Source of the DNA: a virus
Lineage: Duplodnaviria > Caudoviricetes
Length of the DNA: 64,000 nucleotides
Reading direction: 5' to 3' (one strand)
IMG/VR virus record: IMGVR_UViG_2751185860_000001
Coordinates: 1-64,000 of that record
Part shown: in pieces, positions 10,437 to 37,345 of the stretch
Position numbering within the stretch: position 1 is the stretch's first letter
How the letters are laid out: every line of letters begins with the position of its first letter
Notes under the pieces: model-generated
Told to the model about the DNA's origin: nothing
Databases searched by the model: none
Seen by the model: the letters and a program-made list of their open reading frames with translations, nothing else
Translations under genes and position numbers: made by a program

Positions 10437-10735
10437 GGATTGATATAGTTTTCTTGAAAAGATTTTGCCTTTATATGAAAGCTTTTTAAAATATGCATTC
10501 ATAGAAGAAATTTATGAATATTATCAATGAGTTCTATGAATGAGCTGAGAACAGCATTTGGATGTTGGTAAAATGCTATAAAATGTTTGTTTTCAGTATA
10601 TTATTTTGTTTATCTGTATTAACTAGTTTAATATATTATGATATAATATTGTAAATATATATAAAAATTAGTTTTTTATTCCTATATTTTGTTTCATTAA
10701 GACACACATAATTTTTCTTAGAAAAGATATCCAAC

Positions 10736-11170
10736 ATGATCAATAAAGTAATTTTAGTAGGCAATCTTGGTGCCGATCCTGAGAGCAGGACAATGGCATC
10801 TGGTGCAGAGGTGGTGAACTTTCGTATAGCCACGTCACAGAGCTATACAGATAAAGCAACAGGTGAAAAGGTAGATAAAACAGAATGGCATTCTGTCGTT
10901 GTTTTTAATCCACATCTTGCAAAGGTTGCGCTTCAGTATCTGAGTAAAGGTTCCAAGGTTTATGTTGAAGGTCAATTACAGACACGTAAATGGCAAGATA
11001 AAAGCGGGCAAACACGTTACACAACAGAAATTGTCTTGCCGCAATATAGGGGTGAATTGAGGATCCTTAATAGCATTCAAAAAGATGGTATTGATATGGC
11101 TTTGGAAGCGATGGAGCAAGAGGATAAGCGGTATTTAAAAACAACTTTGAATGATAGAATCCCGTTTTAA
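10736..11170 (+). CDS. ssb: Single-stranded DNA-binding protein
   Basis: [16 protein letters not shown]...[13 protein letters not shown]; acidic tail NDRIPF. Confidence 0.96.
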
Positions 11171-11184
11171 TCAGAGGTTTTCTT

Positions 11185-11730
11185 ATGAAGAAACGAAAGA
11201 AACGGGGAAGACCTAGAATAGAAGGTCAAATAAGAGAACCCAATGGACGTATTTCGCGTGCAAAAACGACTGACAAGTCTTTGTACCAACAGACACTTAA
11301 AATGCGTGCCAAGCGTTATGGGGCGAGTATTCAAGATGCGAAAAACCCGCTTATGGGCACTTATGTAGGGCGGTTATATTTGTTGGAAAAAAAGATTAAT
11401 CAAGATCAGTATGATGCGTCACAGCAGTATATTCAGGTGAAAAACGATTATCGGTGTGCAAAAGGGTTTCAGAGTGCAGTTTATAGTGAGATGCCAACAT
11501 GTTATGATGACAGAGGAAGGGAAAAATGGATTGAAATAGCAACTGATCGCTATGAAGCTGTGCAAGAGGTTATTAGAGAAACACAAGGTTTATATCGTCA
11601 GTATAATCTTCATGCTGCTTTGCAGTATATTGTTATAGAAGACCAACAACTGCCGCATCTTGTCAGTTCTCTATACATTGCTCTGAATGCTCTTCATAAA
11701 TACTTCTCGCAAGAGAAAAAAACTTTGTAA
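11185..11730 (+). CDS. Putative late-gene regulator / antiterminator (DUF6456-like by pattern)
   Basis: 181 aa; last early gene before the late promoter and terminators; INQDQYDASQQY and C-terminal LYIALNALHKYF; close paralog at 35830-36360. Confidence 0.5.
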   Translation: MKKRKKRGRPRIEGQIREPNGRISRAKTTDKSLYQQTLKMRAKRYGASIQDAKNPLMGTYVGRLYLLEKKINQDQYDASQQYIQVKNDYRCAKGFQSAVYSEMPTCYDDRGREKWIEIATDRYEAVQEVIRETQGLYRQYNLHAALQYIVIEDQQLPHLVSSLYIALNALHKYFSQEKKTL

Positions 11731-11752
11731 ACTTTAAGCAGCGTCTTGAATA

Positions 11753-11839
11753 TCAATAAGTGATGAACTCTTGAAAGTCTTTAATAATAACAATAAGGAT
11801 ATCATTATCATCTTTAATGAATTTAATGGCATATTTCAT
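11753..11839 (-). pseudogene. HicB-like antitoxin remnant (not in the ORF track)
   Basis: MKYAIKFIKDDNDILIVIIKDFQEFITY* resembles a HicB N-terminus; ATG overlaps the upstream stop (ATGA); a DIQDAA* tail follows in another frame (11734-11754). Confidence 0.5.
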
Positions 11840-12120
11840 TTGGAACAAGATTGTACGTTAAGTTGCAAATTAAGAGCTGTTAATACTGCAACTAAGGTTG
11901 AAAGTTTAGGATCACCATTTTCACTTAAAGAGCGATACAAACCACTTCGTGCGAGATCCGCTTCTTTTGCTAAAGCACTCATATTTTGAGCTCGAGCAAC
12001 AATACCAAGAGCATCAGCAATATGAGCTGCGTCACCTGTTTTAAAAGCTTCATTTAAGAATATTTGCTGTTCTTCAGAAGTTTTCAGATATTCTTCAGGT
12101 TTAAATGGTGTTACCTTCAT
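11836..12120 (-). CDS. Addiction-module antidote, HigA-like antitoxin
   Basis: ALGIVARAQNMSALAKEADLARSGLYRSLSENGDPKLSTL. Confidence 0.9.
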   Translation of the reverse strand: MKVTPFKPEEYLKTSEEQQIFLNEAFKTGDAAHIADALGIVARAQNMSALAKEADLARSGLYRSLSENGDPKLSTLVAVLTALNLQLNVQSCSK

Positions 12121-12409
12121 CAGTATACTCCTTTTTTAGTTTCAACGCTTTTTCAATATCTTTTTGCTGTGTTGATTTATCTCCACCACATAACAAAAGG
12201 ATAAATTCAGAACCGCTTTTGAAGAAATAAACCCGGTAACCGGCTCCATAGTGGATACGTAATTCACCGATACCATTAAAAAATTTTACATCACCTAATA
12301 ACCCTCGGTTTAAACGTGTGATACGTTCAAGAATAATAGCTTTAACACTTTTGTCTTTGAGCTTCTTAAGCCAAATGTCGAATTCTTCAGTTTTATGAAT
12401 GCGTATCAT
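12101..12409 (-). CDS. Addiction-module killer, RelE/HigB-like toxin
   Basis: GLLGDVKFFNGIGELRIHYGAGYRVYF...LLCGGDKSTQQKDI. Confidence 0.9.
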   Translation of the reverse strand: MIRIHKTEEFDIWLKKLKDKSVKAIILERITRLNRGLLGDVKFFNGIGELRIHYGAGYRVYFFKSGSEFILLLCGGDKSTQQKDIEKALKLKKEYTDEGNTI

Positions 12410-12415
12410 GTGTCT

Positions 12416-12444
12416 ACTATAGTGTACATATGATATTTTGTCAA
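12416..12444 (-). promoter_or_regulatory. TA promoter
   Basis: Minus-strand TTGACA (12444-12439), 17 nt, TATAGT (12421-12416). Confidence 0.7.
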
Positions 12445-12538
12445 GTGAAATCCTTTATTTTAAATGTGTGATTTTACACTTCCAAATACCATATTTAGAT
12501 TAATTGAGATAAAAAGATACCAGATTATGATTTTTTAG

Positions 12539-12567
12539 TTGACATGGGGGAGAAAATAGTATTTAAT
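12539..12567 (+). promoter_or_regulatory. Late promoter of prophage 1 (pR'-like)
   Basis: TTGACA (12539-12544), 17 nt, TTTAAT (12562-12567); near-identical copy at 37134-37162. Confidence 0.78.
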
Positions 12568-12642
12568 GACACCGCTGTAGGAGGTTTTATTGCGTCCAAA
12601 ATTACAGTTGTAATACAATTTTTATTTCTTGCTATGCTACGG

Positions 12643-12668
12643 AAAGCCCTGCGTTTGCAGGGTTTTTT
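12643..12668 (+). terminator. Intrinsic terminator 1 in the late leader
   Basis: ccctgc-gttt-gcaggg followed by T6. Confidence 0.82.
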
Positions 12669-12713
12669 GTTAAAGCAATCCAGTTTATTCATTTTTATTT
12701 ATTGACATTAATT

Positions 12714-12749
12714 GACCTCCTCTTGTCCCCCGAGAGTGAGGTCTTTTTT
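12714..12749 (+). terminator. Intrinsic terminator 2 in the late leader
   Basis: gacctc...gaggtc followed by T6, just upstream of the terS RBS. Confidence 0.6.
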
Positions 12750-12777
12750 GTTTAAATCACTTCCAAAGGAATCCCCG

Positions 12778-13098
12778 ATGGCATCTGGATCAGATAAGTC
12801 TGTGAAAGGGACACCGCCTAATGCAGGAGCAGGGCGTGTGAAAGGTGTTCCCAATAAGACAACGCGTATACTTAAAGAGGCTGTGATTAAGGCTGCAGAG
12901 CAGGCTGGCAACAAATATGGCAATGAAGGGCTGATCTCTTATCTTGAACGCCAGGCTGTAAAATGCCCCGCTGCTTATTTAGCGTTGTTGGGAAAGATCT
13001 TGCCTTTGCAGGTTACCGGTGAAAATGATGAAGCCATCAAGATGATTACACGTGTTGAGATTGTAGCACCTGTTATCAAGGACAAAGATGCTGTTTAA
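12778..13098 (+). CDS. Terminase small subunit (probable)
   Basis: GAGRVKGVPNKTT motif; directly upstream of the large terminase; RBS aagga. Confidence 0.7.
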   Translation: MASGSDKSVKGTPPNAGAGRVKGVPNKTTRILKEAVIKAAEQAGNKYGNEGLISYLERQAVKCPAAYLALLGKILPLQVTGENDEAIKMITRVEIVAPVIKDKDAV

Positions 13099-13109
13099 GG
13101 GTAATTGAG

Positions 13110-14435
13110 ATGGCTACAGCTCAAGTTGTGATCATCGAGAAATTAATCCCCTTGTTTCAAGGAGCTGCTGATGTGCGTGCTGCGTGGGGAGGGCGAGGAT
13201 CAGGAAAGACAAGGTCCTTTGCCTTAATGGCGGCCTTAAAGGGCTATGAATATGGTATGGGTGGGATATCAGGGATTATCCTTTGTGCTCGCCAGTTTCA
13301 AAATTCGCTTGCTGAGAGTTCATTGCAAGAGATTAAACGAGCGATTGAGACTTATGATTTTTTAAAGGATTATTACAACGTTGGAGAGTCGTCCATTAAG
13401 TCGAAAGATGGACGTATATCTTTTCAGTTTTCGGGGCTAGATCGCAATATTGCGAGCATTAAGTCGATGGGACGTATTTTGCTTTGTTGGGTTGATGAAG
13501 CTGAACCTGTGACAGAAACGGCTTGGCAAACACTGATACCGACATTGCGGGAAGAAGGAGAGGGCTGGCGTGCAGAGCTTTGGGTGACGTGGAATCCGTT
13601 GCGTGAGAATGCACCTGTTGAAAGACGCTTTCGTTTTACAAAGGACGAAAACATTAAAGGAGTAGAAGTTAACTGGTCTGATAATCCTTTGTTTCCCCAA
13701 AAGCTGCAAAGAGTACGTCTTGATGATCTTCAAAACCGTCCTGAGAGCTATAAGCATATTTGGGAGGGTGATTATCTTAAAGCTGTGCAAGGGGCTTATT
13801 TTCAAAAGGAGATGTTAGCAGCAGAGCAAGAGGGGCGCATAGGGCATGTTGCACGTGATCCTTTAATGCCCATTCGTGCTTTTTGGGATATTGGGGGCAC
13901 TGGAGCTAAAGCTGACGCAACGGCTATATGGATTGCACAGTTTGTGGGAAGAGAGATCAGGGTGCTTGATTATTATGAAGCACAAGGTCAACCCTTATCG
14001 GAGCATATAGGATGGTTGCGTCATAATGGTTATGACAAGGCAGTGATGGTGCTTCCTCATGATGGGGCGACAAGAGACCGTGTTTATAATGTGAGCTTTG
14101 AGAGTGCTTTAAATGAGGCTGGTTTTGACACACAGGTTGTGCCCAATCAAGGAGCAGGGGCTGTTAAGATGCGCATTGAAGCGGTGCGTCGTATTTTACC
14201 TTGTGTTTGGTTTCATGAAGAAACAACGGTTGCTGGCCGTAAGGCGTTAAATTGGTATCACGAAAAATGGGATGAAAAGCGCGCCATTGGTTTGGGTGCT
14301 GAACATGACTGGGCAAGTCATGGAGCCGATGCCTTTGGTTTGATGTGCACTGTTTATGAAGCACCACGTACTCCATCAAAACCAGAGCGTTATAGCGCGA
14401 CAGAAAGAGAAACGGCATCATGGATGGCATTTTAG
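13110..14435 (+). CDS. terL: Terminase large subunit (PBSX/Sf6-like)
   Basis: Walker A GGRGSGKT, Walker B WVDEAE, nuclease WDIG and ASHGADAF. Confidence 0.95.
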   Translation: MATAQVVIIEKLIPLFQGAADVRAAWGGRGSGKTRSFALMAALKGYEYGMGGISGIILCARQFQNSLAESSLQEIKRAIETYDFLKDYYNVGESSIKSKDGRISFQFSGLDRNIASIKSMGRILLCWVDEAEPVTETAWQTLIPTLREEGEGWRAELWVTWNPLRENAPVERRFRFTKDENIKGVEVNWSDNPLFPQKLQRVRLDDLQNRPESYKHIWEGDYLKAVQGAYFQKEMLAAEQEGRIGHVARDPLMPIRAFWDIGGTGAKADATAIWIAQFVGREIRVLDYYEAQGQPLSEHIGWLRHNGYDKAVMVLPHDGATRDRVYNVSFESALNEAGFDTQVVPNQGAGAVKMRIEAVRRILPCVWFHEETTVAGRKALNWYHEKWDEKRAIGLGAEHDWASHGADAFGLMCTVYEAPRTPSKPERYSATERETASWMAF

Positions 14436-16462
14436 AAAACGATGTACAAAAGACGACAAGTCTTGATGATGATGCGCTTTATAGACGTCTTAAGTCTTGG
14501 TATGCAGAAGATATAGAGCATGCCAATGAATGGCGTGAGCAAGCGCGTGAAGACTTTGACTTTTATAATGGACGTCAATGGGCAGAAGAAGATTTAGCTG
14601 TTTTAAAGGCACAGCGGCGCCCTGTGATGACGTTTAACCGTATTGCTCCTTTGGTGAATGCCATTGTTGGAGCAGAGCGTAACAATAAACGGGAAGTGCA
14701 GTTTCAACCAAGACAAGTTGGTGCAGCGATATCCAATGAATTACTCACCGGAGCAGCAGAATGGTTTCGTGATGAAGCTGAAGCTGAATATGCCGATTCC
14801 GATGCCTTTCAAGATATGGTCATTTGCGGTATGGGGTGGACAGATACACGGCTTGATTATGAAGAAAACCCTGAAGGTAAACCCACAGTAAGACGCTTAG
14901 ATCCACTCAAGATGGTGTGGGATGTGAATGCTGTAAGGCCTAATCTGGTTGATGCACAGCGTATGTGGTATGTTGATCGCAAGCCCATTGAGGATGCAAA
15001 AAGCTTGTTTCCCAATGTGGCCAGTGAAGATCTGAATGCTGATTGGGCTGTCGATAACACAACCGATCTTGAAGATTATCATGTTTCCCTTGATGCTTAT
15101 AGTGATGACAATAATAGGATAGATGCCGTTTCAAGGAAACGCTATGTCACGCTTGTTGAGTGTCGTTGGTTTGAACATGAGACCTATTACAAAGCACCTG
15201 ATCTTCAAACAGGACAGATGCGTGATTATAGTGCCCAAGAGTTTGAACAACTGCAAATGCTTGTGCCGCAAATCCAAGGAGCGAGCTTTCATAAAAAGGT
15301 GGTTAAGCGTGCTTTTTTAGGGCGTCGTCTTTTAGGCAAGCCTGACAGACCATTAGCGCCTGATGGGCAACTTGGATGGGAGTGCATTACAGGCACGTTG
15401 GATAAGCTTAAAAACCAGTTTTATGGCATTGTGAGGCCGGCGAAAGACCCACAAAAATGGTCGAATAAATATTTTAGTCAGGTGATGTATATCCTCAATA
15501 GCCAGGCTAAAGGTGGGATTATGGCTGAACGAGGTGCTTTTGATGATGAGCGCCAGGCCGTGGAGAGCTGGGCAAAGGCTGATACAATCACATGGCTTAA
15601 AAGTGGTGCTTTAACTCGTGGAATGATACAGTCTAAACCACGTGCAGAGTTTCCTAATGGTTTCTTTCAGCTGTTTAATGAGGCCTGTGAGGCGCTTACA
15701 CATGTGACAGGTTTATCTGCTGAGTTTATAGGAACAAGGGAGGTTAATCAGGCGAATGTGTTGGAGAATACACGTCGCCAGTCAACACTCAATTTGCTTG
15801 CAGGTTTATTTGATAATTTAAAGCTGTATCGGTGCCGACAAGGAAAGATCATTCTTTATCTGATTCAAACCTATCTTTCCGATGGTCGTTTGGTGCGCAT
15901 TTCTGGACCAGAGAAGGCTGAGTATGTACCCTTAACGCGTGAGGCTGTCACCACCCTTGAGTATGACATTATCGTTGATGATTCACCAACCAGTCCGAAT
16001 GAGAAAGAAAGAACCTTTGCAGCGGTTACTCAGATGTTGCCGTTGCTCGGGAATTTCTTAACGCCTGATATGATCCCCGATCTTTTGAAACTCTCGCCAT
16101 TGCCAGCAACTCTTGTAGCCAGTTTAACGGCTAAAGCCCAGCAAGCGCAAATGCAACAGCAACAACAGCAGATGATGATGCAAAACCAAGGGCCACAATT
16201 AAGCCCCGAGCAACAAGCAAAAGTTGCAGCCATTCAACAAGAAACTCAGGCGAAAGGCGTGCTCAATCAACTGGATGCCCAAAGCAAACAAATGGCACTG
16301 CAGCAAAAGAATATTGAGCTTTTCTTAAAGCAAGAACAAGCGCGTATGCAGCTTGAACAGCAAAGAGCAAGAAATGAGATAACCCAGCGAGAGATGCAGA
16401 TCAGAGCATTACAAATAGAGCTTGAAGGTTATCGAGCAGCAACCATCAGAGGCAAAACTTAA
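14420..16462 (+). CDS. Portal protein (P22-like) with Gln-rich coiled C-terminal barrel
   Basis: 680 aa after terL; EDFDFYNGRQW, RPVMTFNRI; poly-Q tail. Confidence 0.88.
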   Translation: MDGILENDVQKTTSLDDDALYRRLKSWYAEDIEHANEWREQAREDFDFYNGRQWAEEDLAVLKAQRRPVMTFNRIAPLVNAIVGAERNNKREVQFQPRQVGAAISNELLTGAAEWFRDEAEAEYADSDAFQDMVICGMGWTDTRLDYEENPEGKPTVRRLDPLKMVWDVNAVRPNLVDAQRMWYVDRKPIEDAKSLFPNVASEDLNADWAVDNTTDLEDYHVSLDAYSDDNNRIDAVSRKRYVTLVECRWFEHETYYKAPDLQTGQMRDYSAQEFEQLQMLVPQIQGASFHKKVVKRAFLGRRLLGKPDRPLAPDGQLGWECITGTLDKLKNQFYGIVRPAKDPQKWSNKYFSQVMYILNSQAKGGIMAERGAFDDERQAVESWAKADTITWLKSGALTRGMIQSKPRAEFPNGFFQLFNEACEALTHVTGLSAEFIGTREVNQANVLENTRRQSTLNLLAGLFDNLKLYRCRQGKIILYLIQTYLSDGRLVRISGPEKAEYVPLTREAVTTLEYDIIVDDSPTSPNEKERTFAAVTQMLPLLGNFLTPDMIPDLLKLSPLPATLVASLTAKAQQAQMQQQQQQMMMQNQGPQLSPEQQAKVAAIQQETQAKGVLNQLDAQSKQMALQQKNIELFLKQEQARMQLEQQRARNEITQREMQIRALQIELEGYRAATIRGKT

Positions 16463-16480
16463 ACGAAAAGGAACGAAACA

Positions 16481-17455: not shown

Positions 17456-17561
17456 AGGACATGCATCTTAGCTCATCAGAGATAACCAAGTGATGGTGCT
17501 TGGTTATGCCGTACTTTTTGCGGCAATTTTTTAAACAATACGAAGAAAGGCATTTTAAAAA

Positions 17562-18698
17562 ATGGCGACAACACAAATAACGATCAATGACCCATTAGCG
17601 GTTAGCGCTTGGGCTAAGATGCTCAATACAGAGACCTCAAAAGCGTTGTCTATTGCACCGCTTATGGGGACAAACAAAAATAGTGTCATCCAAGTTCAGG
17701 ATGAATCAGGAAAATCAGCGGGTGATTCAATCACCATGGGATTGCGTGTTCAGCTTATGGGTGATGGTGTTAGCGAGGGCCAAACGCTGGAAGGCAATGA
17801 GGAAGCACTTCAGTTTATGAGTGATAAGATACGCATTAATGAGCTTTCTCATGCTGTACGTGTTAAAAATGAAGGATCGATTGATCAGCAACGTGTTTTG
17901 TTTAACTTGCGTAATGAAGCAAAGGATGGACTTGTTGATTGGTATGCAGACCGTTTAAGCATGATGTTCTTTATTCAGGCTGCAGGCTATACAGCACCAT
18001 GGATGAAGTTTGAAGGGCATACCGTAACGCTTAAGCCTGTGCATTATGGTTTTAATGAACCTTTAGAGCCAAGCAGTAAGCGTGTTATTCGCCCAGGTCA
18101 GAAAAAAACGGATGAGACGCTTGCGAAAGAGGATGTGTTTAATCTCAAATTGATTGATCAAGCTGTGCAGCGTGCAAAACTGGCTAATCCTAAGATTAGA
18201 CCGGTGCGTATCAATGGAGACAGTGTCTATGTGATGTATCTTCACCCAATACAGGTGACCCAATTGCGCACCAATACAGATCCTGGTCAGTGGCTTGACA
18301 TTACCAAGGCAGTTTTTAATGGAAGCCGCTCTAAAAACCCCATTTTTGATGGATCATTAGGGATGTATAATGGTGTTGTTTTGCGTGAATCTGAACATGT
18401 GCCCAATGGTGTTGATTCAAAGACCAAAGAGCCTGTTTTGTCTGTTCGGCGTGCTGTTTTGCTTGGTGCACAAAGTATCATCATGGCTTATGGGCGTTTT
18501 AATGGTGGAGCGAAAGGCAATGGAGCAACACGCTATAAATTAGTGGAAGAGATGTTTGATTATGAACGTGAGTTTGGTGTGGCTGCTAAGACTCTTATTG
18601 GCATGAAAAAGCCACGCTACGCTTTACCCTATTCTAATCAGGGAGCACAAGACTTTGGCACCATTGTCATTCCATCTTTTGCTGAAGATAACGTATAA
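17562..18698 (+). CDS. Major capsid protein (N4-gp56/DUF4043-like)
   Basis: KSAGDSITMGLRVQLMGDGVSEGQTLEGNEEAL; GSLGMYNGVVLRE; RAVLLGAQS. Confidence 0.88.
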   Translation: MATTQITINDPLAVSAWAKMLNTETSKALSIAPLMGTNKNSVIQVQDESGKSAGDSITMGLRVQLMGDGVSEGQTLEGNEEALQFMSDKIRINELSHAVRVKNEGSIDQQRVLFNLRNEAKDGLVDWYADRLSMMFFIQAAGYTAPWMKFEGHTVTLKPVHYGFNEPLEPSSKRVIRPGQKKTDETLAKEDVFNLKLIDQAVQRAKLANPKIRPVRINGDSVYVMYLHPIQVTQLRTNTDPGQWLDITKAVFNGSRSKNPIFDGSLGMYNGVVLRESEHVPNGVDSKTKEPVLSVRRAVLLGAQSIIMAYGRFNGGAKGNGATRYKLVEEMFDYEREFGVAAKTLIGMKKPRYALPYSNQGAQDFGTIVIPSFAEDNV

Positions 18699-18726
18699 AC
18701 ATCAATGAAATGAGTAGGATTTAATT

Positions 18727-19158
18727 ATGACAAAACAACGTCTTATGACACAGACATTTGTTGATTTTACACAAACAACGGATGAGGGCATGCCACCTGT
18801 TTTGCAGGGGCGTGATATTCATACACAACAAGTGAGCTTTTTTCGCTCACGTATACAAGCAAGTGACACAGGGCTTACCACATCGGTTGGTGTTTTACCA
18901 CGGGGTGCTTTGATTAAAAGCATTACTGTTTATACACTGACAGATTTTGAAGGGGCCACTGCAACGATTGGCAAAAAACCAGGGGACAGTGATTATGGGA
19001 CACAAGTGCTTGAAGCGGAAGGTGTTAAAGAGGTTGAATTGCCTTTAAAAGCACGCAGCGTTCCCCTTCAGTTTGAAAATACGATTTATGTTACACGAGA
19101 CAAGAAAAGCTCCAAAGGGGATGCTGAGATCATTGTTGAGTTTTACACAAATCGTTAA
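18727..19158 (+). CDS. Capsid-associated / decoration protein (probable)
   Basis: 143 aa beta-rich ORF directly after the capsid gene. Confidence 0.55.
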   Translation: MTKQRLMTQTFVDFTQTTDEGMPPVLQGRDIHTQQVSFFRSRIQASDTGLTTSVGVLPRGALIKSITVYTLTDFEGATATIGKKPGDSDYGTQVLEAEGVKEVELPLKARSVPLQFENTIYVTRDKKSSKGDAEIIVEFYTNR

Positions 19159-19196
19159 AAGAAGGGGGCGTTTGTTCCTTACGCTCCCTCCTTTTT
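19157..19196 (+). terminator. Internal terminator after the capsid genes
   Basis: gggggcgt/acgctccc stem followed by tccttttt. Confidence 0.6.
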
Positions 19197-19216
19197 AAAT
19201 GTTGGGAATATTATTG

Positions 19217-21794: not shown

Positions 21795-21795
21795 C

Positions 21796-28998: not shown

Positions 28999-29011
28999 AG
29001 GTTTTTTAAAG

Positions 29012-29272
29012 ATGATCAATAATCCCTCGGCAATTGATGAGATTGCCGACACAGGGCAGATTCGTGTTCTTTTTTATGCAAGTCATAAATTAGTTCATGC
29101 GCCATTAAATAAGGTTCTTGATAAGGTCAAAGACGATATTCAGCATGATCTTTTGAATGTTTTTACAGCTTACCAAAAAGAGACAGAGCAACGCATTGAG
29201 ACTTTGCAAGAAGCCGTTGATGAATTGCGTTTGCAACTTGTCAATCTAACACATCCCGAAGATACAAATTAA
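29012..29272 (+). CDS. Small coiled-coil tail-associated protein
   Basis: 86 aa ORF between the two fibre genes. Confidence 0.55.
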   Translation: MINNPSAIDEIADTGQIRVLFYASHKLVHAPLNKVLDKVKDDIQHDLLNVFTAYQKETEQRIETLQEAVDELRLQLVNLTHPEDTN

Positions 29273-29285
29273 GGAATTCAAAGCG

Positions 29286-31582
29286 ATGCCTATTCCCTAT
29301 CACACACACAAGTTTGAAATTGAGCCAGCGACAAATAAGGAAGTCAAAGAAGGTATTTTAGACAATAAAGTTGTTGCACCCTCTTCATTGGGGAGTGCAG
29401 CGGCTTATTCTATGGGTTATTTTGCGACTGCTGCTCAAGGAAAGAAAGCTGATGAGGCCGTTGCAAAAAGAGATGTTGGGGCACTTGCTTATAAAGATAC
29501 GGTTACAGTTAATGATATAAGCACAAGTGGGGATCCTAGTGAGAATACAGTTCTATCGGGTACTGGCTGGATAAAGCTATCGCCTTTGGGAATTGGCGAT
29601 ATGAGTGCTGCTATTTATGATCCTTCTAATGTGATGTCAGATGCCTTTTCTATGGAGAATATGGTTGAAGGTGATACAAAGAAGATTTTGACTGCAGAAG
29701 AAAGAGTAAAGCTACAATGGATAAGTTCTGAGTGCCCTACAATAGAAAAATGGAAGAAGGCAGATGAGGATATCAATTATCCTATATCTCCTGCTGATCT
29801 TAAAGATACTATCACTCATTTTACATTATCAAAATCTCTTGCGATGTCAAAATCAGTTTATGATCCAGATAAAATAGCAAAGGATGTTTTTGCTATGGAT
29901 CATATGAAAGAGGGGGAGAAACACCTTATCTTAACGCCTCAAGAACGTATCCAGATTACGAAGATTAATCAAATTGAAGAGGTTGCACAGCAAGCACAAA
30001 CGACAGCTCAATGTGGGGTCAATGCAGCAGGTGAGGCTAAAGAGACTGCAGATAAAGCACAAGTGGCCGCAGAGAGTGCAAAAGAAACGGCGGCGGTTGC
30101 AAAAGAGGCGGCAGTAGCTGCACAAACGACAGCTAATAGTGCAAAGAAAGCCGCTGATACTGCACAAAGCACTGCCAATAAAGCACAAGAAACTGTAGAT
30201 AAGGTGCAAAGCACTGCAGAGAGTGCAAAGGAAACGGCAGCAGATGCTTTAAGCACAGCAAAGGATGCGCAAAGCACTGCTGATAAAGCACAAGTGGCTG
30301 TAGAGAGTGCAAAAGAAGCAGCGACAAGTGCAAAAACAGTAGCTGATAAGGCGCAAGAAACTGCCGTGGATGCAAAAGAGACTGCAGACAAAGCACAAAA
30401 AGCAGTTGATCTCATTCACCCTCTTGAAAAGCAAGATTGGATTGATGGCATCAAAGCAGAAAATGCACTGATATCACCGGCTCATCTTGTTGCTTCTATC
30501 AAAGCAAATAGTGGCGGCAGTAGTGGGGGCAGCAGCAATAGTGTGGGTGTAGGTGTTAGCAAACCTGTTGAGATTTTCATGACGGAAAGTGGGGAAATTG
30601 CATGGCCAGAAGGGACAACTGGAGACACCGAGCTTGAAATATGGGCTTGGGGTGGTGGTAATGCTGGTGATGATAGTGGTCGTCATGGTGGTAATGGTGG
30701 GTGTTGTACTTATGTGAGAACAAGGAAAAAGTTTCTTGGCAACAGTAAAGTAACTATCGGCAAGGGTGGAAAAACAGCTGAGAATAGCGGTTTCGCTGGG
30801 GAAAAAACAAAAGTTGGTCAGTTTATTACAGCTTCTGGTGGTTCTATCGGATACGATCCTAGTGGTATTCATGGTGCCAGGGGCGATGATGGAGCTGATG
30901 CAGAGGATCAAAGTGGTATTGGGGGTGATGGCAAGAATGGTGAAGTTGGTAGGATAGGTGGATTTGGTGGTAATGGGGGAAAGGGGGCAAAAGCGGTAAA
31001 AATAGTACTGGAGGGCGTGGGGGCAGTGGTGGCAGAGGGGGCGATAATTTTTTAAAAAGTGCCGGTAATGGAGGTAAAGGCGGTGATGGTGGGCGTGGCG
31101 AGAATGGTGGTAAAGGCGGCGGAGGTGGCGATGGTGGAAACAATATATATAACGGTGGCGGTGTTGGAGGTTGGGGTGGTAAAGGAGGAGATGTAGGTGC
31201 TGGTTTAGGTGGTGAAGGCGGTTGGGGTGGTAAAGGAGGCAATAGTATGTGGGGTGGTGGTGGCGGAGGTGGTATTGGAGGAGACGGTGGTGATAGTAAC
31301 CAAGGAATTGGTGGTAAAGGCGGTTTAGGCGGACGTGGTGGAGACAGTATTTATGGCGGTGCAGGTGGAGGGGCAGGGGGTGGCAAAGGTGGAAAAGGCG
31401 AGAAAAACGGTAATAATGGTACTAGTGGACTTGGGGGTCATAGCATGTGGGGTGGTCGTGGTGGACAGGGAAGTATTGGTTACTATGGTGGTGGCGGTGG
31501 ATATTTTCCCGGAAAAGATGCGACATCTTCATCAAGCGGTGCTGGGGGAGATGGTGCTGTATTAATTAAAGTGTATTTATAG
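29286..31582 (+). CDS. Long tail fibre: Ala-rich heptad stalk plus glycine-rich tip; continuous only through a -1 shift near 30977-30987
   Basis: ORF 29286-31055 and the -1 frame leading into ORF 31247-31582 join (GKGGKSGKNSTGG...); C-terminus GAGGDGAVLIKVY matches the fibre tips at 57093 and 58444. Confidence 0.72.
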
Positions 31583-31597
31583 AAATGGAATGAAACA

Positions 31598-32263
31598 ATG
31601 GCACGAAGGATTAGTAAAGACTGTTTGAATTGTTTAAAAAAATGGGAAGGCTTGCGATTAAACGCTTATCAAGATGCATCTGGTGTTTGGACCATTGGAT
31701 ATGGTCATACCGGAAAAGCTGGTAAGCCATTTGTTGTTGAAGGTATGACGATTACCAAGCAAAAAGCTGAAACTATACTTTTAACTGATTTGCAAAAATA
31801 TGAAGCAGCAGTAGAAAAAGAGGTTTGCGTTGATTTAAATGATGAACAGTTTGGGGCTCTGGTTTCATTTTGTTATAATGTTGGTGTAAGTGCTTTTCAA
31901 CGCTCTACCTTGCTTAAAAAGCTTAATAAAGGGGATTATGAAGCTGTACCGGCTGAATTACAAAAATGGACAATGGCAGATGGCAAACGTTTGAAAGGTT
32001 TAGTTCACCGGCGTGCTGCTGAAGCGGGGTTATGGGCAACGAGTGCTTATGTTTCTTCTAATTATCAAGCTGTAGAAGCAAAAGAATCAACAAGTGCTTT
32101 TAAAGTAGAAATGTTAGCGCCTGTCATTGGGTCTTTCTCGGGGCTTGGAGGATTACTTGCTGGCAATGGTCCAGTTCAGTGGGCTTTTGCGGCAATTATG
32201 GTTTTAGCAGCTTGTGTTGGTATTACGTTTGTTGCTCAACGTTTTTGGGAGCAACGGCTGTGA
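31598..32263 (+). CDS. Endolysin, GH24 phage lysozyme with C-terminal hydrophobic helices
   Basis: EGLRLNAYQDASGVWTIGYGHT (E-x8-D-x5-T); GLVHRRAAEAGLW. Confidence 0.92.
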   Translation: MARRISKDCLNCLKKWEGLRLNAYQDASGVWTIGYGHTGKAGKPFVVEGMTITKQKAETILLTDLQKYEAAVEKEVCVDLNDEQFGALVSFCYNVGVSAFQRSTLLKKLNKGDYEAVPAELQKWTMADGKRLKGLVHRRAAEAGLWATSAYVSSNYQAVEAKESTSAFKVEMLAPVIGSFSGLGGLLAGNGPVQWAFAAIMVLAACVGITFVAQRFWEQRL

Positions 32264-32487
32264 TTTGGTGGGGAAAGAAATATTTACTGATGGTGGCGGC
32301 GACTTTAGCCGCTTTTTTTGTAACTTTAGCTAAGGTTTTTCGGTTTGGAAAGAAAGTTGAGCAACGCAAACGGACTGAGAAAACTTTAAAAATAGCTATA
32401 ACACGGTTTGAAGTAGAAGATGAAGTTAACAAGAAAAGTGATGTGGATATACGCTCTGATCTGTCTGAGTGGGTGCGTAAAGAATGA
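32260..32487 (+). CDS. Inner-membrane spanin-like protein (Rz-like)
   Basis: GTG start overlapping the lysozyme stop (GTGA); N-terminal TM helix then coiled region. Confidence 0.6.
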   Translation: MIWWGKKYLLMVAATLAAFFVTLAKVFRFGKKVEQRKRTEKTLKIAITRFEVEDEVNKKSDVDIRSDLSEWVRKE

Positions 32488-32632
32488 CTATGTTTCTTGC
32501 CTAGGATGGATGCCAATTTATTTGGATAGGCAAGACTACGATGGAATCAGTTCAAACTTAGCACGAGACATTTTAAAGCATAATGAGAACGGAAAACGTT
32601 CTTGTGGATGGAAGCCTATTAACACAAGTTAA
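32420..32632 (+). CDS. Outer-membrane lipoprotein spanin-like protein (Rz1-like)
   Basis: Lipobox LSGC; overlaps the preceding gene in another frame. Confidence 0.65.
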   Translation: MKLTRKVMWIYALICLSGCVKNDYVSCLGWMPIYLDRQDYDGISSNLARDILKHNENGKRSCGWKPINTS

Positions 32633-32666
32633 AGGTGATTTATAAGGGTAAGTTGCAAAATCCTAT

Positions 32667-32696
32667 TCCCTAACCTGATTATTTTATCCCTAACCT
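32667..32696. repeat. Candidate integrase arm-type sites
   Basis: tccctaacct at 32667-32676 and 32687-32696. Confidence 0.5.
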
Positions 32697-32745
32697 TAAA
32701 TAAATATCAATAAAATCAATGGGTTATAGGGGTAAAAAAGGCATA

Positions 32746-32761
32746 TGGTGCCCCCAGAGGG
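32746..32761 (-). other. att core resembling a tRNA 3' end (...CCCTCTGGGGGCACCA)
   Basis: Minus strand reads T-stem half ccctc, acceptor half tgggggc, discriminator A and CCA; lies between the lysis genes of prophage 1 and the integrase of prophage 2. Confidence 0.7.
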
Positions 32762-32887
32762 CGAATCAGTCCTTAGCAAGTAGAATCCAATCACATAAAA
32801 ATGTGCAAAGACGTGTTGCTGTATATAGCTTTTTATGATTCAGTAAGAAAATTAATGATTAAATAAAAAATCTGATATCAAAAATTA

Positions 32888-32908
32888 AAGGTGGTCAAAA
32901 AGGTGGTC
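32888..32908. repeat. Candidate arm-type sites for integrase 2
   Basis: aaggtggtc at 32888-32896 and 32900-32908, just before the int start. Confidence 0.5.
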
Positions 32909-32923
32909 GAAAAGGAGGGGTAA

Positions 32924-34081
32924 ATGAGGGCGATTCATAGGTTAACAGCATCGTTTGTAAAGACATCTCCTCAGGGTAAGTATTGTGATGGAGCAGGCTT
33001 ATGGTTAAATGTTCGAAAAGACAATACACGCGGTTGGTTTTTTCGTTATACATACCGCAATAAACGCCGTGAAATGGGGCTTGGTCCTGTTACAAAAACT
33101 TCTTTAAAGGAAGCACGCGAGTTTGCTAAACATTATAGTGATATTCTTAAGGGTGGCAACGATCCTATTGTATTTCGAGAACAAAGCATTTTAAAACAGC
33201 AAAGCAATGTTTTTCAAGAAATTGCTCAAGCGGCTTTTGAAAGTAAAAAAGCTGAGTTAAAAAATGAAGGAAAAAATGGTCGTTGGTTTTCTCCACTAGA
33301 GTTACACGTTATTCCACATATAGGTAACCTTCCTGTAGAAAAATTAACAGCGAATATTATTCGTAATGTTCTTGCTCCACTTTGGCATAAAAAAGGAGAT
33401 ACAGCGCGAAAAGTACTTAACCGTATCAATATTTGCTTAAAATATGCCGCCGCTCTTGGCTTGGATGTTGATTTACAAGCTTGTATGAAAGCACGCGCTC
33501 TTTTAGGAAAGTCACGCGCTATATCAACAAATATTCCTGCTATGCCATGGCGGGAAGTTCCGGCTTTTTATCAAAACTTAAATGATGACCTCCTTTCAAA
33601 TTTAGCGCTAAAATTGCTAATTTTGACTGGAGTACGGTCATATCCCTTGCGATATTTGCGTCTTGAGCAAATTGATAAAAATGTATGGACGATACCAAAA
33701 GAAAATATGAAGGGTATTGTAGGCAAAGTTTCAGACTTTCGCGTACCGCTAAGTAATGAAGCTTTGAGAGTCATTGAAAAAGCTCTTTCTTTTGAAAAAA
33801 ATGGTTTCTTATTTTCTGGTCTTAAAGGCACCCCAATTTCTGATGCAAGCATGGCAAAACATATGAAATTTTGTGGTTTAAAGTATCGTCCTCACGGTTT
33901 TCGCTCAAGCTTACGAGATTGGATAGCAGAAACAACATCAACACCATTTGAGATTGCCGAAACTGTCCTTGCTCATTCAGTTGGTAGTTCAGTGACAAAA
34001 GCTTACATGCGAACAGATTTTTTAGAACAACGACATGCTCTCTTAGAACAGTGGGCTACATTTATAACAGGGACGACTTGA
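32924..34081 (+). CDS. int: P4-type tyrosine integrase with arm-binding domain
   Basis: HRLTASFV...YCDGAGLWL; LTGVRS; HGFRSSLRDW; LAHSVG...KAY. Confidence 0.95.
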   Translation: MRAIHRLTASFVKTSPQGKYCDGAGLWLNVRKDNTRGWFFRYTYRNKRREMGLGPVTKTSLKEAREFAKHYSDILKGGNDPIVFREQSILKQQSNVFQEIAQAAFESKKAELKNEGKNGRWFSPLELHVIPHIGNLPVEKLTANIIRNVLAPLWHKKGDTARKVLNRINICLKYAAALGLDVDLQACMKARALLGKSRAISTNIPAMPWREVPAFYQNLNDDLLSNLALKLLILTGVRSYPLRYLRLEQIDKNVWTIPKENMKGIVGKVSDFRVPLSNEALRVIEKALSFEKNGFLFSGLKGTPISDASMAKHMKFCGLKYRPHGFRSSLRDWIAETTSTPFEIAETVLAHSVGSSVTKAYMRTDFLEQRHALLEQWATFITGTT

Positions 34082-34224
34082 CAAAATCACGGAAGCATTT
34101 ATATACGCAAATCAGGTGCTTGAAAAACACCTTAAGCAAACAGCGGATAGATTGTCGACACAATCTTTTTTCTGCACATTAAAGGCTTTGACTCGTTGTA
34201 TACGTGTGGCGTATAGTGATCCTG

Positions 34225-34306
34225 TCGGGTGTGGTTATGCGATACAATACCCTTTATGGGGAAAGCATAACGACGGACTGTTTGCCGTGTTTTTCAGCGC
34301 CCGGCG
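34225..34306 (+). ncRNA. C4-antisense-like structured RNA, copy 2
   Basis: Same fold as 8305-8385 with compensatory stem gttatgc/gcataac; segments ctgtttgc and gtgtttttca are complementary to 34121-34143 and 34327-34349. Confidence 0.8.
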
Positions 34307-34358
34307 CTCTTTTTTTTGAGTGTCAATGAAAAACGTTTGTTACAAACAGGAGTTCGTT

Positions 34359-34874
34359 ATGAACAATCTTATAGAGATTAAAAAACAAGTGATTGATCAG
34401 GAAACTGTTCAGACAGTCAACGCACGTGAGTTGTGTGCTTTTTTAGAGGTAGGAAAAGATTTTTCTACTTGGATTACAAACCGCATTAATCAGTATGAAT
34501 TTGTTGAAAATCAAGACTTTGTTTGCTCCCCTATTTTGGGGAGCAAAGGCAGAGGTGGTCACAATCGCAAAGAATACCATCTCACCTTAGACATGGCGAA
34601 AGAGTTATCCATGGTTGAACGTAATGATAAAGGACGTCAAGCCCGTCGATATTTTATTGAATGTGAAAAAAAATTAAACAGTCAATTACAATTTGATCGT
34701 GAACTGTTTTCTCGTGATTTATTAAAATCACCTTCAGGTATTGGTGAAATTTTAGAAATAATTATGACACGTTTATTAGATGCAAATGGTTTTGAAAAAG
34801 AGCTTGAACATTACAAATCAGTTACAACAGAAGCCAAGCGTGTTTTAGAAAGCCCTGTTGCAAAGGCTGCTTAA
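34359..34874 (+). CDS. AntA/AntB-family antirepressor
   Basis: DQETVQTVNARELCAFLEV...YHLTLDMAKELSMVERNDKGRQARRYFIECE; RBS aggag before ATG 34359. Confidence 0.9.
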   Translation: MNNLIEIKKQVIDQETVQTVNARELCAFLEVGKDFSTWITNRINQYEFVENQDFVCSPILGSKGRGGHNRKEYHLTLDMAKELSMVERNDKGRQARRYFIECEKKLNSQLQFDRELFSRDLLKSPSGIGEILEIIMTRLLDANGFEKELEHYKSVTTEAKRVLESPVAKAA

Positions 34875-34949
34875 TTACAAAGAATATAACCATACCTTTC
34901 CCCTGTAAAATGGGGAGAGGTTAAGTTTTATATTTGTATGTTTAGCAAT

Positions 34950-35186
34950 TTACTTACATTGCTGAATAGAGAAACATCCGTATTTGTAGGGCACAAACTC
35001 ATAACTTTGTTTTTCTTCCCATTGCGTAAATAAAAATAAGTACTTTTGAAAATCTATACTTGAAAGGCGTCCTCCGAATTCTTGAAGGAAAGCTAACAAT
35101 AGTTTTTGCCGTTTGAATAGAATCCTACTTTTTACTGTTTTCATAGTATTATTTCTGTATCTGATTGATATTTTGCTTAGAACCAA
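34950..35186 (-). pseudogene. Truncated DUF488-like gene (N-terminal fragment)
   Basis: KLLLAFLQEFGGRLSSIDFQKYLFLF...YEFVPYKYGCFS then a premature stop. Confidence 0.5.
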
Positions 35187-35366
35187 CCCAATGAAATTAT
35201 ATCACAAAAAAGTATTTATGCACTGATAAAATCAACAATAATTGTTTATTTTCAATAATTTATGCTGTTTTTTCTTTGGAAAAATGGACTGTGTTGTGCT
35301 ATAGTAAAAGCAGCTTTTCATATCCGTATTTCATTTCAATTATTTTCCTTAGAAAAGATATCAAAC

Positions 35367-35813
35367 ATGCTTAATAAAGTAATTTTAATCGGCTATCTGG
35401 GTGCCGATCCCGACAGCAGAATAATGCCATCTGGAGTAGAAGTAGCAAATTTTCGTATGGGCACTTCTCAAAGTTATACAGATAAAACAACCTCTCAAAG
35501 AATAAATAAAACAGAATGGCATTCTATTGTGATTTTTAATCCGCATCTTGCAAAGATTGCGCTTCAGTATCTCAACAAAGGTTCCAAAGTTTACATTGAA
35601 GGTCAATTACAAACACGTAAATGGCAAGATAAAGATGGGCAAACACGCTACACAACAGAAATTGTCTTACCGCAATATAAAGGTGAGTTAAAAATCCTTG
35701 ATAGTGCTCAAAAGTCTGATCCTGACATGGCTACTCAAGAGCAAACAATGGCATGGGAGAGTGGTGGTCGAGAGTCTTTAGAAACGACTTTGAATGACAG
35801 AATCCCATTTTAA
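35367..35813 (+). CDS. ssb: Single-stranded DNA-binding protein, copy 2
   Basis: MLNKVILIGYLGADPD...[13 protein letters not shown]...NDRIPF. Confidence 0.96.
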   Translation: MLNKVILIGYLGADPDSRIMPSGVEVANFRMGTSQSYTDKTTSQRINKTEWHSIVIFNPHLAKIALQYLNKGSKVYIEGQLQTRKWQDKDGQTRYTTEIVLPQYKGELKILDSAQKSDPDMATQEQTMAWESGGRESLETTLNDRIPF

Positions 35814-35829
35814 TCAGGAAAGTTAATTT

Positions 35830-36360
35830 ATGAAGAAACGCAAAAAAAGGGGAAGACCTAGAATAGAAGGTCAAATAAGAAAACCCAATGGACGTATCTC
35901 GTGTGCAAAAACGCCTGATAAGTCTTCATATCAACAGACACTTGAAATGCGTGCCAAGCGTTATGGAGCGAGTATTCAAGATGCGAAAAACCCACTTATG
36001 GGCACTTATGTAGGGCGGTTATATTTATTGGAAAAAAAGATTAATCAAGATCAGTACGATGCATCACAGCAGTATATTCAAGTGCGAAACAATTATCGGT
36101 GTGCGAAAGGATTACCAGGGGCTATTTATGATGAAATGCCAACATCTTCTGATGATAGCGAAAGGAACAAGTGGGTTGAAGTAACAACTGATCGCTATAA
36201 AGCGATGCAAGAGGTTATCAGAGAAACACAGAGACTGCATCGTCGGTATAATCTTCATGATGCATTAGAGCATCTGGTTATTGAAGACCAACAACTGCCA
36301 CATCTTGTCAACTCTCTACGCATGGCTCTGAATGCTCTTCACAAATATTTTGATCCTTAA
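35830..36360 (+). CDS. Putative late-gene regulator / antiterminator, copy 2
   Basis: Close paralog of 11185-11730 in the same context. Confidence 0.5.
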   Translation: MKKRKKRGRPRIEGQIRKPNGRISCAKTPDKSSYQQTLEMRAKRYGASIQDAKNPLMGTYVGRLYLLEKKINQDQYDASQQYIQVRNNYRCAKGLPGAIYDEMPTSSDDSERNKWVEVTTDRYKAMQEVIRETQRLHRRYNLHDALEHLVIEDQQLPHLVNSLRMALNALHKYFDP

Positions 36361-36368
36361 TAAAAGGA

Positions 36369-36415
36369 TTGACATCAGATTTAAAATTAATAAAATGTGT
36401 ATATATTTACACATT
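36369..36415 (+). promoter_or_regulatory. hicAB promoter with operator palindrome
   Basis: TTGACA (36369-36374), 16 nt, TAAAAT; inverted repeat aatgtgta/tacacatt (36394-36415). Confidence 0.65.
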
Positions 36416-36428
36416 ATGAGTATATAAA

Positions 36429-36629
36429 ATGGAACAAGATAGCCGAAAAATCATTGCAAAATTAAAGTGTGACGGCTTTGAACTTGTTAAAGTAAAAGGT
36501 TCTCATCATAAATTTAAAAAAAATGGTCAAGTAATTATCGTTCCCCATCCTAAAAAAGACTTGCCAATTGGTACAGCGCGTTCCATTGCACAACAAGCGG
36601 GCTGGTTAAAAAAAGGAAAAGAAGAATGA
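36429..36629 (+). CDS. hicA: HicA toxin
   Basis: GFELVKVKGSHHKFKK...VPHPKKDLPIGTARSI. Confidence 0.93.
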   Translation: MEQDSRKIIAKLKCDGFELVKVKGSHHKFKKNGQVIIVPHPKKDLPIGTARSIAQQAGWLKKGKEE

Positions 36630-37021
36630 AAAGATTTTTTGCTCTTGTTCACAAGGATGAAAATTCTGCTTTTGGTGTTCAGTTTCCTGATTTTAAAGGA
36701 CTATTTTCTGCTGCCGATCAGGAAGAAAATCTTATTGCTAATGCAACAGAAGCTCTTCAACTATATTGCGAAGAAATGGATAAATTGCCAACTCCTTTAA
36801 AATTTGAAGAAGTGATACAGAAAGAAACTGTCAAAATAGCTTTGTCGGAAGGAGCTTTTTTAATACAAGTTCCATTTGTTGAAAATGATTCAGAAGTGGT
36901 GCGTATGAATATATCAATTGAACGAGGGCTCTTGCGTGCAATTGATGATTGTGCACAAGAAAGAGGCTTAACACGATCTGCCTTTTTAGCAACGGCAGCA
37001 CGTCATGAGCTTAATATTTGA
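36626..37021 (+). CDS. hicB: HicB antitoxin with C-terminal RHH domain
   Basis: AFGVQFPDFKGLFSA...RMNISIERGLLRAIDD...TRSAFL. Confidence 0.93.
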   Translation: MKRFFALVHKDENSAFGVQFPDFKGLFSAADQEENLIANATEALQLYCEEMDKLPTPLKFEEVIQKETVKIALSEGAFLIQVPFVENDSEVVRMNISIERGLLRAIDDCAQERGLTRSAFLATAARHELNI

Positions 37022-37133
37022 GTCATCAGATGTAATGAGAAAATTTACAACTTTTCTTCTACGACCATTTACACTTAACAAATACCATATTTAGTTTGAT
37101 TGAAATAAAAAATACCAGATTGTGATTTTTTAG

Positions 37134-37162
37134 TTGACATGGGGATATAAATAGTATTTAAT
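37134..37162 (+). promoter_or_regulatory. Late promoter of prophage 2
   Basis: TTGACA (37134-37139), 17 nt, TTTAAT (37157-37162). Confidence 0.78.
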
Positions 37163-37234
37163 AGCGCTACTGCACGTGTTTTTGTGCGCCCAAAATTACA
37201 GAATCATGTAATTTTTTCTTGTTGGTGTTGTTTT

Positions 37235-37262
37235 AAAAGCCCTGCAAATGCAGGGTTTTTTG
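37235..37262 (+). terminator. Intrinsic terminator 1 in the late leader of prophage 2
   Basis: ccctgc-aaat-gcaggg followed by T6. Confidence 0.82.
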
Positions 37263-37310
37263 ATTTAAAAAATCAAATTCAGTCACTCCTATTTTTTTAT
37301 GATTTACTGG

Positions 37311-37345
37311 CCTCACTCCTCCCCTCCTGAGAGTGAGGTTTTTTT
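37311..37345 (+). terminator. Intrinsic terminator 2 in the late leader of prophage 2
   Basis: cctcactc/gagtgagg stem followed by T7. Confidence 0.75.

Follow-up and report, generated by a model that had tools for sequence, protein, structure and literature searches.

A putative late antiterminator and its promoter cassette shared by Bartonella prophages with unrelated virion modules

Introduction

Two prophages with different virion genes lie in the 64,000-nucleotide stretch of DNA analyzed here (hereafter, the window), which comprises positions 1 to 64,000 of IMG/VR record IMGVR_UViG_2751185860_000001, and both carry a small open reading frame (ORF) encoding a protein of 176–181 aa, followed by a toxin-antitoxin pair and a near-identical promoter region in front of the late operon. 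This arrangement raises the question of what switches on the late genes of these phages, and of whether the small ORF encodes the switch. The window spans C2:573715-637714 of a 1.81-Mb, three-contig genome (G000). Relatives of the small ORF belong to Bartonella melophagi, B. schoenbuchensis, B. bovis, and further members of the genus, which assigns the genome to Bartonella, nearest to the ruminant-associated species.

Processive antitermination has been experimentally shown for two regulators of gene transfer agents (GTAs), BrrG and GafZ (10.1101/2024.11.20.624540; PMC11150451). The Caulobacter GafZ shares homology with GafA over the C-terminal part of the latter (PMC11150451, PMC9638019), and GafA homologs carry the annotation DUF6456 (PMC9638019). 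The ROR locus of Bartonella encodes BrrG, which binds the promoter P_bgtA-K (TTGACA-N17-TATCAT, 3' of clpB) and carries the polymerase past its native terminator as well as past a synthetic terminator; in the late locus of the Bartonella GTA (BaGTA), BrrG controls the promoter, leader, and terminator, the B. henselae promoter lying 864 bp 5' of bgtK (10.1101/2024.11.20.624540). Published work already covers the mechanism and two of the superfamily's branches, and a full-text literature search, incomplete in coverage, returned no description of the prophage family addressed here or of a Bartonella prophage antiterminator.

Results

A late control cassette in both prophages

The 176–181 aa ORF probably encodes a Q-like processive antiterminator of late genes, of the BrrG and GafZ type. 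The cassette would then be what turns on the late genes in a group of temperate Bartonella phages, operating on the lambda Q / pR' / tR' principle. The protein would be produced from the gene that closes the early-right (replication) operon, on the same transcript as ssb, while the late promoter, with its perfect −35, would fire and yield transcripts ending at two terminators (T1 and T2) in a leader of ~200 nt. Once accumulated, the protein would bind the promoter at ATACCA-type direct repeats and A/T-rich DNA 5' of the −35, possibly with the help of an invariant N-terminal RGRP arm, and would join RNA polymerase early in elongation, making it terminator-resistant. The modified polymerase would then pass T1, T2, and the terminators internal to the operon, reaching the head, tail, and lysis genes. 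A processive mechanism is called for because internal terminators are present in both late operons. We infer DNA binding, loading onto the polymerase, and terminator read-through from the observed anatomy, conservation, gene-promoter linkage, and remote homology of the following elements.

Prophage 1
10736..11170, plus strand: ssb, 14 nt 5' of the regulator gene (ORF list)
11185..11730, plus strand: 181-aa putative late antiterminator (phrog_15385), distantly related to DUF6456/BrrG, RGRP basic arm at the N-terminus
11836..12409, minus strand: toxin-antitoxin cassette, with a Gp49-like toxin (12101-12409) and an HI1420-type antidote (11836-12120) (Pfam)
12486-12498 (ATACCAtATTtaG) and 12517-12529 (ATACCAgATTatG), plus strand: two direct repeats, 31 bp apart and just 5' of the −35; candidate protein-binding sites
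12539..12567, plus strand: late promoter, TTGACA (12539-12544), 17 bp, TTTAAT
12568..12607, plus strand: block conserved in the initially transcribed region, with TATTG(C/T)GTC.AAAATT as part of it; candidate for a sigma-dependent pause or a loading element
12643..12668, plus strand: intrinsic terminator T1 (−21.7 kcal/mol, z −4.9)
12714..12753, plus strand: intrinsic terminator T2 (−17.7 kcal/mol, z −5.7)
12778..13098, plus strand: first late gene (BgtK homolog), then terL (13110-14435) and portal (14420-16462) (PHROGs)
~19157..19196, plus strand: internal intrinsic terminator (−19 kcal/mol, z −3.2), after the major head gene (17562-18698) and a 143-aa gene

Prophage 2
35367..35813, plus strand: ssb, likely start MLNKVILIG
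35830..36360, plus strand: 176-aa regulator paralog (phrog_15385), 80% identity to copy 1
36369..37021, plus strand: hicA/hicB cassette, genes at 36429-36629 and 36626-37021 (Pfam)
37082-37094 and 37112-37124, plus strand: direct repeats; late promoter with −35 at 37134-37139 and −10 at 37157-37162
37235..37261, plus strand: terminator T1 (−15.9 kcal/mol)
37309..37346, plus strand: terminator T2 (−15.1 kcal/mol)
37375..37845, plus strand: first late gene (156 aa, phrog_37815)
58753..58792, plus strand: internal terminator, GGCCAAATA...TATTTGGCC then a T-run, just 5' of the tail sheath gene (ATG 58818, phrog_23)

An earlier note, made from the letters of the window, had listed most of these elements, and each part it named in the two prophages (ssb, the 176–181 aa ORF, the toxin-antitoxin pair, the near-identical promoter, and two terminators) lies where it had been placed, as do the terminators inside the late operons. 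Its reading of the whole as a lambda Q / pR' / tR' layout also holds, both copies presenting a gene at the end of the early operon, a promoter, and intrinsic terminators ahead of the late genes. The start of the first late gene of prophage 1 is ATG 12778, behind AAAGGAA, which corrects a previous assignment to TTG 12712.

The two regulator ORFs of the window are 80% identical over 163 residues (E 3e-101), and the gap between ssb and the regulator is 14–17 nt across both prophages. Five phage ssb paralogs are found in the genome, with a regulator ORF after each. In the early region of prophage 1, the leftward genes encode a helix-turn-helix repressor, Ant, RecT, and YqaJ, and the rightward genes a YdcK-like protein, the DUF1376 replication protein, Ssb, and the regulator. 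The regulator ORF is hence the final early-right gene ahead of the late operon, behind the DUF1376 replication gene and ssb.

Conservation of the late promoter and leader

Homology between the two copies sets in abruptly ~65 nt 5' of the −35. Identity is 29% farther upstream, in the toxin-antitoxin cassettes, 88% at −57 to −1 counted from TTGACA, and 86% across the core promoter. When 21 promoters taken from 18 Bartonella genomes are aligned, TTGACA and TATTTAAT are invariant, as is the C of a GAC behind the −10, its G and A being nearly so; the spacer contains an A-tract and the flanks diverge. Two upstream direct repeats of the type A.AC.A.AT...G are conserved across this set, and so is the TATTG(C/T)GTC.AAAATT block at about +13 to +35 (+10 to +40 in wider limits). 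The direct repeats and the A/T-rich DNA 5' of the −35 are candidate regulator-binding sites.

Leader length ranges from 170 to 215 nt among the compared promoters. Both hairpins of each window copy bear U-tracts, and none of 200 shuffled sequences folded as well. Two canonical terminators are present in the six promoters of this lineage and a single one in two other genomes, and the copy 1 T1 sequence is 93–96% conserved in distant species. A consensus scan for promoters and terminators missed the late promoter and the T1/T2 pair of both copies. The promoter was missed because the scan demands an A at position 2 of the −10, which the hexamer TTTAAT lacks; the terminators were probably missed as the scan extends stems into A/U pairs.

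Copies and distribution

Five intact cassettes occur in the genome, together with one frameshifted ORF on contig C1. The ORF copies lie at C2 584899, 609544, 720882, 934052, and 1190743, and matching promoters at C2 586250, 610845, 722076, 935434, and 1192125, each 3' of a paralogous ORF; no orphan promoter of the prophage type was found in the genome outside these five cassettes. Two of the cassettes precede a type-A virion module and the other three a type-B module. The protein family is present in 52 of the 61 Bartonella genomes searched, with up to 17 matches per genome, and the promoter DNA in 40 of the 61, none of which is devoid of the ORF. In all pairs compared by coordinates (about a dozen), the promoter lies 0.4–1.3 kb 3' of the ORF on the same strand.

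Beyond Bartonella, an exhaustive profile search returned 502 cluster representatives at E≤1e-3, and the ten of these that were looked up are mostly metagenomic. Of 300 other alphaproteobacterial genomes that were sampled, 4 contain a match, in keeping with a prophage gene; from one of the 4, the unpublished G100, only this match is considered. A tblastn search of a phage collection gave no match for the ORF. Late-operon placement holds in two of the three non-Bartonella loci examined. In one alphaproteobacterial locus (L090), the family member lies immediately 5' of a promoter-like stretch, after which come a canonical terminator (GCGCCCGGACC...GGTCCGGGCG plus a T-run) and then genes for a TerS-like protein, TerL, the portal protein, and a protease; in another (L092), it lies immediately 5' of HNH, terS, terL, and portal genes of another type. 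The third (L091) is followed by no late genes and resembles a remnant. The placement of the ORF before terminase operons of phrog_3717, phrog_15, and phrog_9 indicates a regulator family that serves three unrelated terminase families.

The two type-A prophages of the genome (13110-16462 in the window; C2:720882-725988) have terL and portal genes that are 100% identical, with 80% identity between their regulators and 81% between their promoters. As judged from these identities, the disparity suggests that the early/late junction has recently undergone mosaic exchange.

The regulator family as a remote relative of DUF6456 and BrrG

Pfam assigned no family to either window ORF at E≤1, apart from sub-threshold noise, and a profile search of solved structures by sequence returned only noise, in agreement with the earlier remark that the ORF has no recognizable Q sequence. 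PHROGs places both ORFs in phrog_15385, which has no annotated function. Named relatives are all "hypothetical", although some database records read "single-stranded DNA-binding protein", a label that probably stems from gene adjacency.

The earlier note had also likened the ORF by eye to DUF6456 proteins and counted BrrG among them. At the profile-profile level both likenesses stand. An alignment of 99 diverse family members (A4), compared through hhalign with 22 DUF6456 domains from alphaproteobacterial genomes (A5), matched at 96% (E 5e-9) over 111 columns covering domain positions 5–136, against 1.2% or less for 15 column-shuffled and one reversed A5 controls (0.8% or less for shuffled controls of this match, and 1.6% or less for the shuffled controls overall). 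The alignment of BrrG orthologs (A3) matched DUF6456 at 97% (E 2.7e-11) over 120 columns. Membership as defined by Pfam's own model did not stand for either: the DUF6456 model matched nothing at E≤1 anywhere in the genome, whereas the Caulobacter control was matched, and Pfam does not place the BrrG ortholog in DUF6456. The prophage family and BrrG match each other at 73–78% (E 2–3e-5) over 52 columns only, both matching DUF6456 much better. A hidden Markov model of the family, run against all ORFs of the genome, detected no clear distant paralog, the best sub-threshold match being the BrrG ortholog (E 0.09). Judging from these profile comparisons, the ORF family, BrrG, and DUF6456 (the GafA family) form one remote superfamily, of which the prophage ORFs are the third branch.

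The N-terminus of the family harbors an invariant G-R-P within the motif RGRP, which we read as a putative AT-hook-like core. An AlphaFold2 model built with a deep alignment is all-helical (pLDDT 93.5), its basic N-terminus being less ordered. In a wide structure comparison of two models, Q21 and sigma region 4 were matched weakly, tied with unrelated helical proteins. These modeled matches agree with reports on BrrG, GafZ, and GafA, without establishing the fold. The C-terminal 50 residues of the regulator and the promoter spacer sort by virion type.

Relationship to the BaGTA locus

In this genome, clpB lies at C2:1350453-1352999, and a TTGACA-N17-TACTAT promoter is found just past it, followed by bgtK, terL, and portal. 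The first late genes of prophage 1 are related to those of this bgt locus (C2:1344448-1349255), with 52% identity for BgtK, 73% for TerL, and 65% for the portal protein. From these identities, prophage 1 looks like a relative of the phage whose capsid module was domesticated into BaGTA. The BaGTA leader of this genome (L048) carries a canonical intrinsic terminator, GTGCCCTGAGAGGGCATTTTT, at C2:~1349560 on the minus strand, ~830 nt after P_bgtA-K and ~300 nt before bgtK.

The ROR locus (L047) lies ~20 kb from the bgt locus and contains genes for YqaJ, a helix-turn-helix repressor (brrB), DUF1376 (brrC), and a TOPRIM primase-helicase (brrF), followed by a 191-aa ORF (L047:9411-9986), a gene order that agrees with the published description (PMC5496983). 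The 191-aa ORF is found from B. bacilliformis and B. ancashensis to B. henselae, as one protein cluster in most species, and is taken here as brrG by synteny, its match to UniProt A0A0R4J952 not being confirmed. By their sequences and locations, the prophage ORFs are not BrrG orthologs, since they are multi-copy prophage genes and brrG is a separate, single-copy ROR gene.

The earlier note had further proposed that the prophage regulator might act on a chromosomal GTA promoter, a suggestion that finds no support here. P_bgtA-K and the prophage promoter share only AGTTGACA and the 17-bp spacing, a genome search for the BaGTA pattern TTGACA-N17-TATCAT and for orphan copies of the prophage promoter returned none beyond the five cassettes, and BrrG is very distant from the prophage proteins. 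With no promoter copies outside the five cassettes, this possibility was dropped.

Prophage layout and neighboring features

The slot between the regulator and the late promoter is occupied by toxin-antitoxin cassettes that are unrelated to one another, each of which has a strong promoter of its own (12444-12416 in copy 1 and 36369-36396 in copy 2, both scoring 11/12 in the promoter scan); by its content, it looks like a cargo (moron) site within the control module. The phrog_37815 gene that opens the late operon of prophage 2 is the usual first gene behind this promoter in other Bartonella species. Right after it, inside the late transcription unit, three consecutive ORFs (37849-40598) look like pieces of a large DNA methyltransferase or restriction-type enzyme, the PHROG methyltransferase matches being weak.

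The early genes of prophage 2 (window 32924-64000, genome C2:640-650k), encoding Ant, the YdcK-like protein, the DUF1376 replication protein, RecT, and YqaJ, are located past the late region and inverted, and the 1190k copy (C2:1185-1226k) shows the same arrangement. The 934k copy (C2:923-967k) has the normal order of early genes, ssb, regulator, late genes, and integrase. The inverted order in prophage 2 and the 1190k copy would fit an invertible segment that extends from ssb through the last late gene, in whose inverted state the regulator gene would be severed from its own early operon.

Two paralogous YdcK-type beta-solenoid proteins (phrog_5070) are encoded in the early-right region (5048-5746 and 8436-9092), and more phrog_5070 copies are present in the other prophages and on contig C1. 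An Rfam match to sRNA-Xcc1 was obtained at 8305-8393 in the early region of prophage 1 (55.3 bits, gathering score 53), and ORF translations suggest an sRNA-Xcc1-like sequence near 34200-34330, 3' of the prophage 2 integrase.

Discussion

The cassette combines traits of several known systems. As with lambda Q, Q21, and Q82, the regulator gene ends the early-right operon and adjoins a strong late promoter, from which a short leader RNA ended by intrinsic terminators would be made, and more terminators lie inside the late operon. Unlike lambdoid Q genes, however, the prophage ORF bears no sequence relation to Q and matches no Pfam family, a toxin-antitoxin cassette parts gene and promoter, two tandem terminators replace the single one, and pause and binding elements are known as candidates only. 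The resemblance to BrrG is closer. Both are small helical proteins of the same genus encoded by the last gene of a phage-type replication operon, with brrG following brrC and brrF as the prophage regulator follows the DUF1376 gene and ssb; both are remote DUF6456 relatives, locally alike in the motif G.IS..QY.AA..Y, and both are paired with a TTGACA-N17 promoter, a long leader with a terminator, and bgtK-type late genes. BrrG nonetheless lacks the RGRP N-terminal arm, and is not, as the prophage protein is, multi-copy and borne by apparently complete prophages; the prophage promoter differs from P_bgtA-K in its upstream direct repeats, −10, and spacer, and its leader from that of BaGTA in being ~200 nt long with two terminators. 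The likeness to GafZ and GafA of the Caulobacter and Rhodobacter GTAs lies in a profile match spanning the whole DUF6456 domain, a predicted sigma-like helix-turn-helix, and control over a virion gene cluster, GafZ being a processive antiterminator. On the other hand, the prophage ORF falls beneath detection by the Pfam model, has an extra N-terminal basic arm, is phage-borne rather than resident in a domesticated element, and no GafY-like partner was identified for it in this analysis.

Several observations weigh against an antiterminator. The absence of an A at position 2 of the −10 suggests a promoter that is possibly not constitutive, and a published account portrays GafA as a direct activator that operates through the omega subunit of RNA polymerase (PMC9638019). 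Among the 21 aligned promoters, a NANNNT −10-like pause element is not convincingly conserved at the BaGTA position, 5 bp after the −10, and the alternative candidate, TATTG(C/T) at about +13 to +18, occurs in most, but not all. For 13 of these promoters, the hairpin in the leader departs from the canonical terminator form; these leaders present at the same position a stem-loop of altered sequence, with a more distant T-run after it. With regard to the protein, the Pfam DUF6456 model (PF20057) had no match at E≤0.01 among the 99 family members, a Foldseek search of the PDB with two models returned nothing at E≤0.001, and the modeled structural matches appear to fall within the noise band of helical proteins, so that no fold is assigned. 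The protein might alternatively be an initiation activator, GafA-like or appropriating sigma region 4, that would recruit RNA polymerase to the late promoter and leave T1 and T2 only to damp leakage, with no terminator-resistant polymerase being formed. We regard this alternative as unlikely. It would accommodate the omega-contacting activator within DUF6456 and the −10 sequence, and the location of two conserved direct repeats just 5' of the −35, a typical place for activator sites, as well as the weak likeness of the C-terminal part to sigma region 4, are also in its favor. The −35, however, is perfect and invariant, activation alone would not carry the polymerase past two strong terminators after the start and those inside both operons, and the nearest characterized relatives of the same genus and class, BrrG and GafZ, are antiterminators that act on constitutive or separately activated promoters. 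The same protein could also perform both activation and antitermination.

It is improbable that the ORF is instead an accessory of the ssb/replication module, with the late operon under another phage or host factor and the linkage of ORF and promoter a product of shared module order. The naming of some family members as single-stranded DNA-binding proteins, the lack of a PHROGs function, and the differing toxin-antitoxin cassettes that separate ORF and promoter are compatible with such a role, but the profile homology to the GafA/DUF6456 and BrrG regulators is not what it would predict; furthermore, no other candidate for a late regulator (Q family or sigma factor) was seen among the early genes scanned, and the ORF retains a position immediately ahead of late operons of three unrelated terminase types. 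The ~35-nt block at the transcript start, highly conserved across the genus, might alternatively be taken to mediate read-through by itself, in cis as in HK022 put or as a riboswitch-like attenuator, and hence without any phage protein. This appears very improbable: RNAalifold predicted no conserved pairing over the initial 84 nt of 20 leaders, on which account a put-like RNA was rejected, single-sequence folds of the leader start were no better than those of shuffles (z −0.1 and −1.5), and Rfam reported no family at the leader. The Brt RNA / Trp system of B. henselae (PMC5387305) was also considered as the identity of the leader and set aside for a misfit in structure and position, Brt RNAs being highly structured and located 10–18 nt ahead of helix-turn-helix genes (PMC5387305).

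If the regulator is indeed an antiterminator, it is plausible, given promoters that are 86–88% identical up to the −10, that one such protein serves both virion types. Some specificity is hinted at by the sorting of the C-terminal 50 residues and the spacer by virion type, and the type-A pair, in which identical terL and portal genes coexist with 80% identical regulators, leaves room for some private specificity. A broader proposal is possible but tentative. Under this proposal, the DUF6456/BrrG/ORF181 superfamily would be the native late antiterminator of a broad range of alphaproteobacterial temperate phages, combining freely with at least three unrelated packaging/virion modules, and would be the source of GafA, GafZ, and BrrG; in a genome with five co-resident prophages of two particle types and near-identical regulator/promoter pairs, induction of one prophage would trans-activate the late operons of the others, including copies in which inversion has severed the regulator gene from its early operon.

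GafZ and BrrG were established as antiterminators only in 2024–2025, and only in domesticated gene transfer agents, and their earlier link to each other and to Q21 relied on predicted structure alone. A sequence-profile link between BrrG and DUF6456 is now added, together with a third branch of the superfamily that resides in apparently complete prophages, at the textbook position of Q, and one of these prophages holds the closest phage relative of the BaGTA capsid module. The profile link, the prophage branch, and the BaGTA relative jointly offer a concrete picture of how GTA regulators may have arisen from phage late switches, and the simplicity of the cassette (a promoter, two terminators, and one small protein) makes it well suited for tests of mechanism. 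With up to 17 family matches per Bartonella genome, prophages may communicate through this switch, and such cross-talk could affect horizontal gene transfer in Bartonella pathogens.

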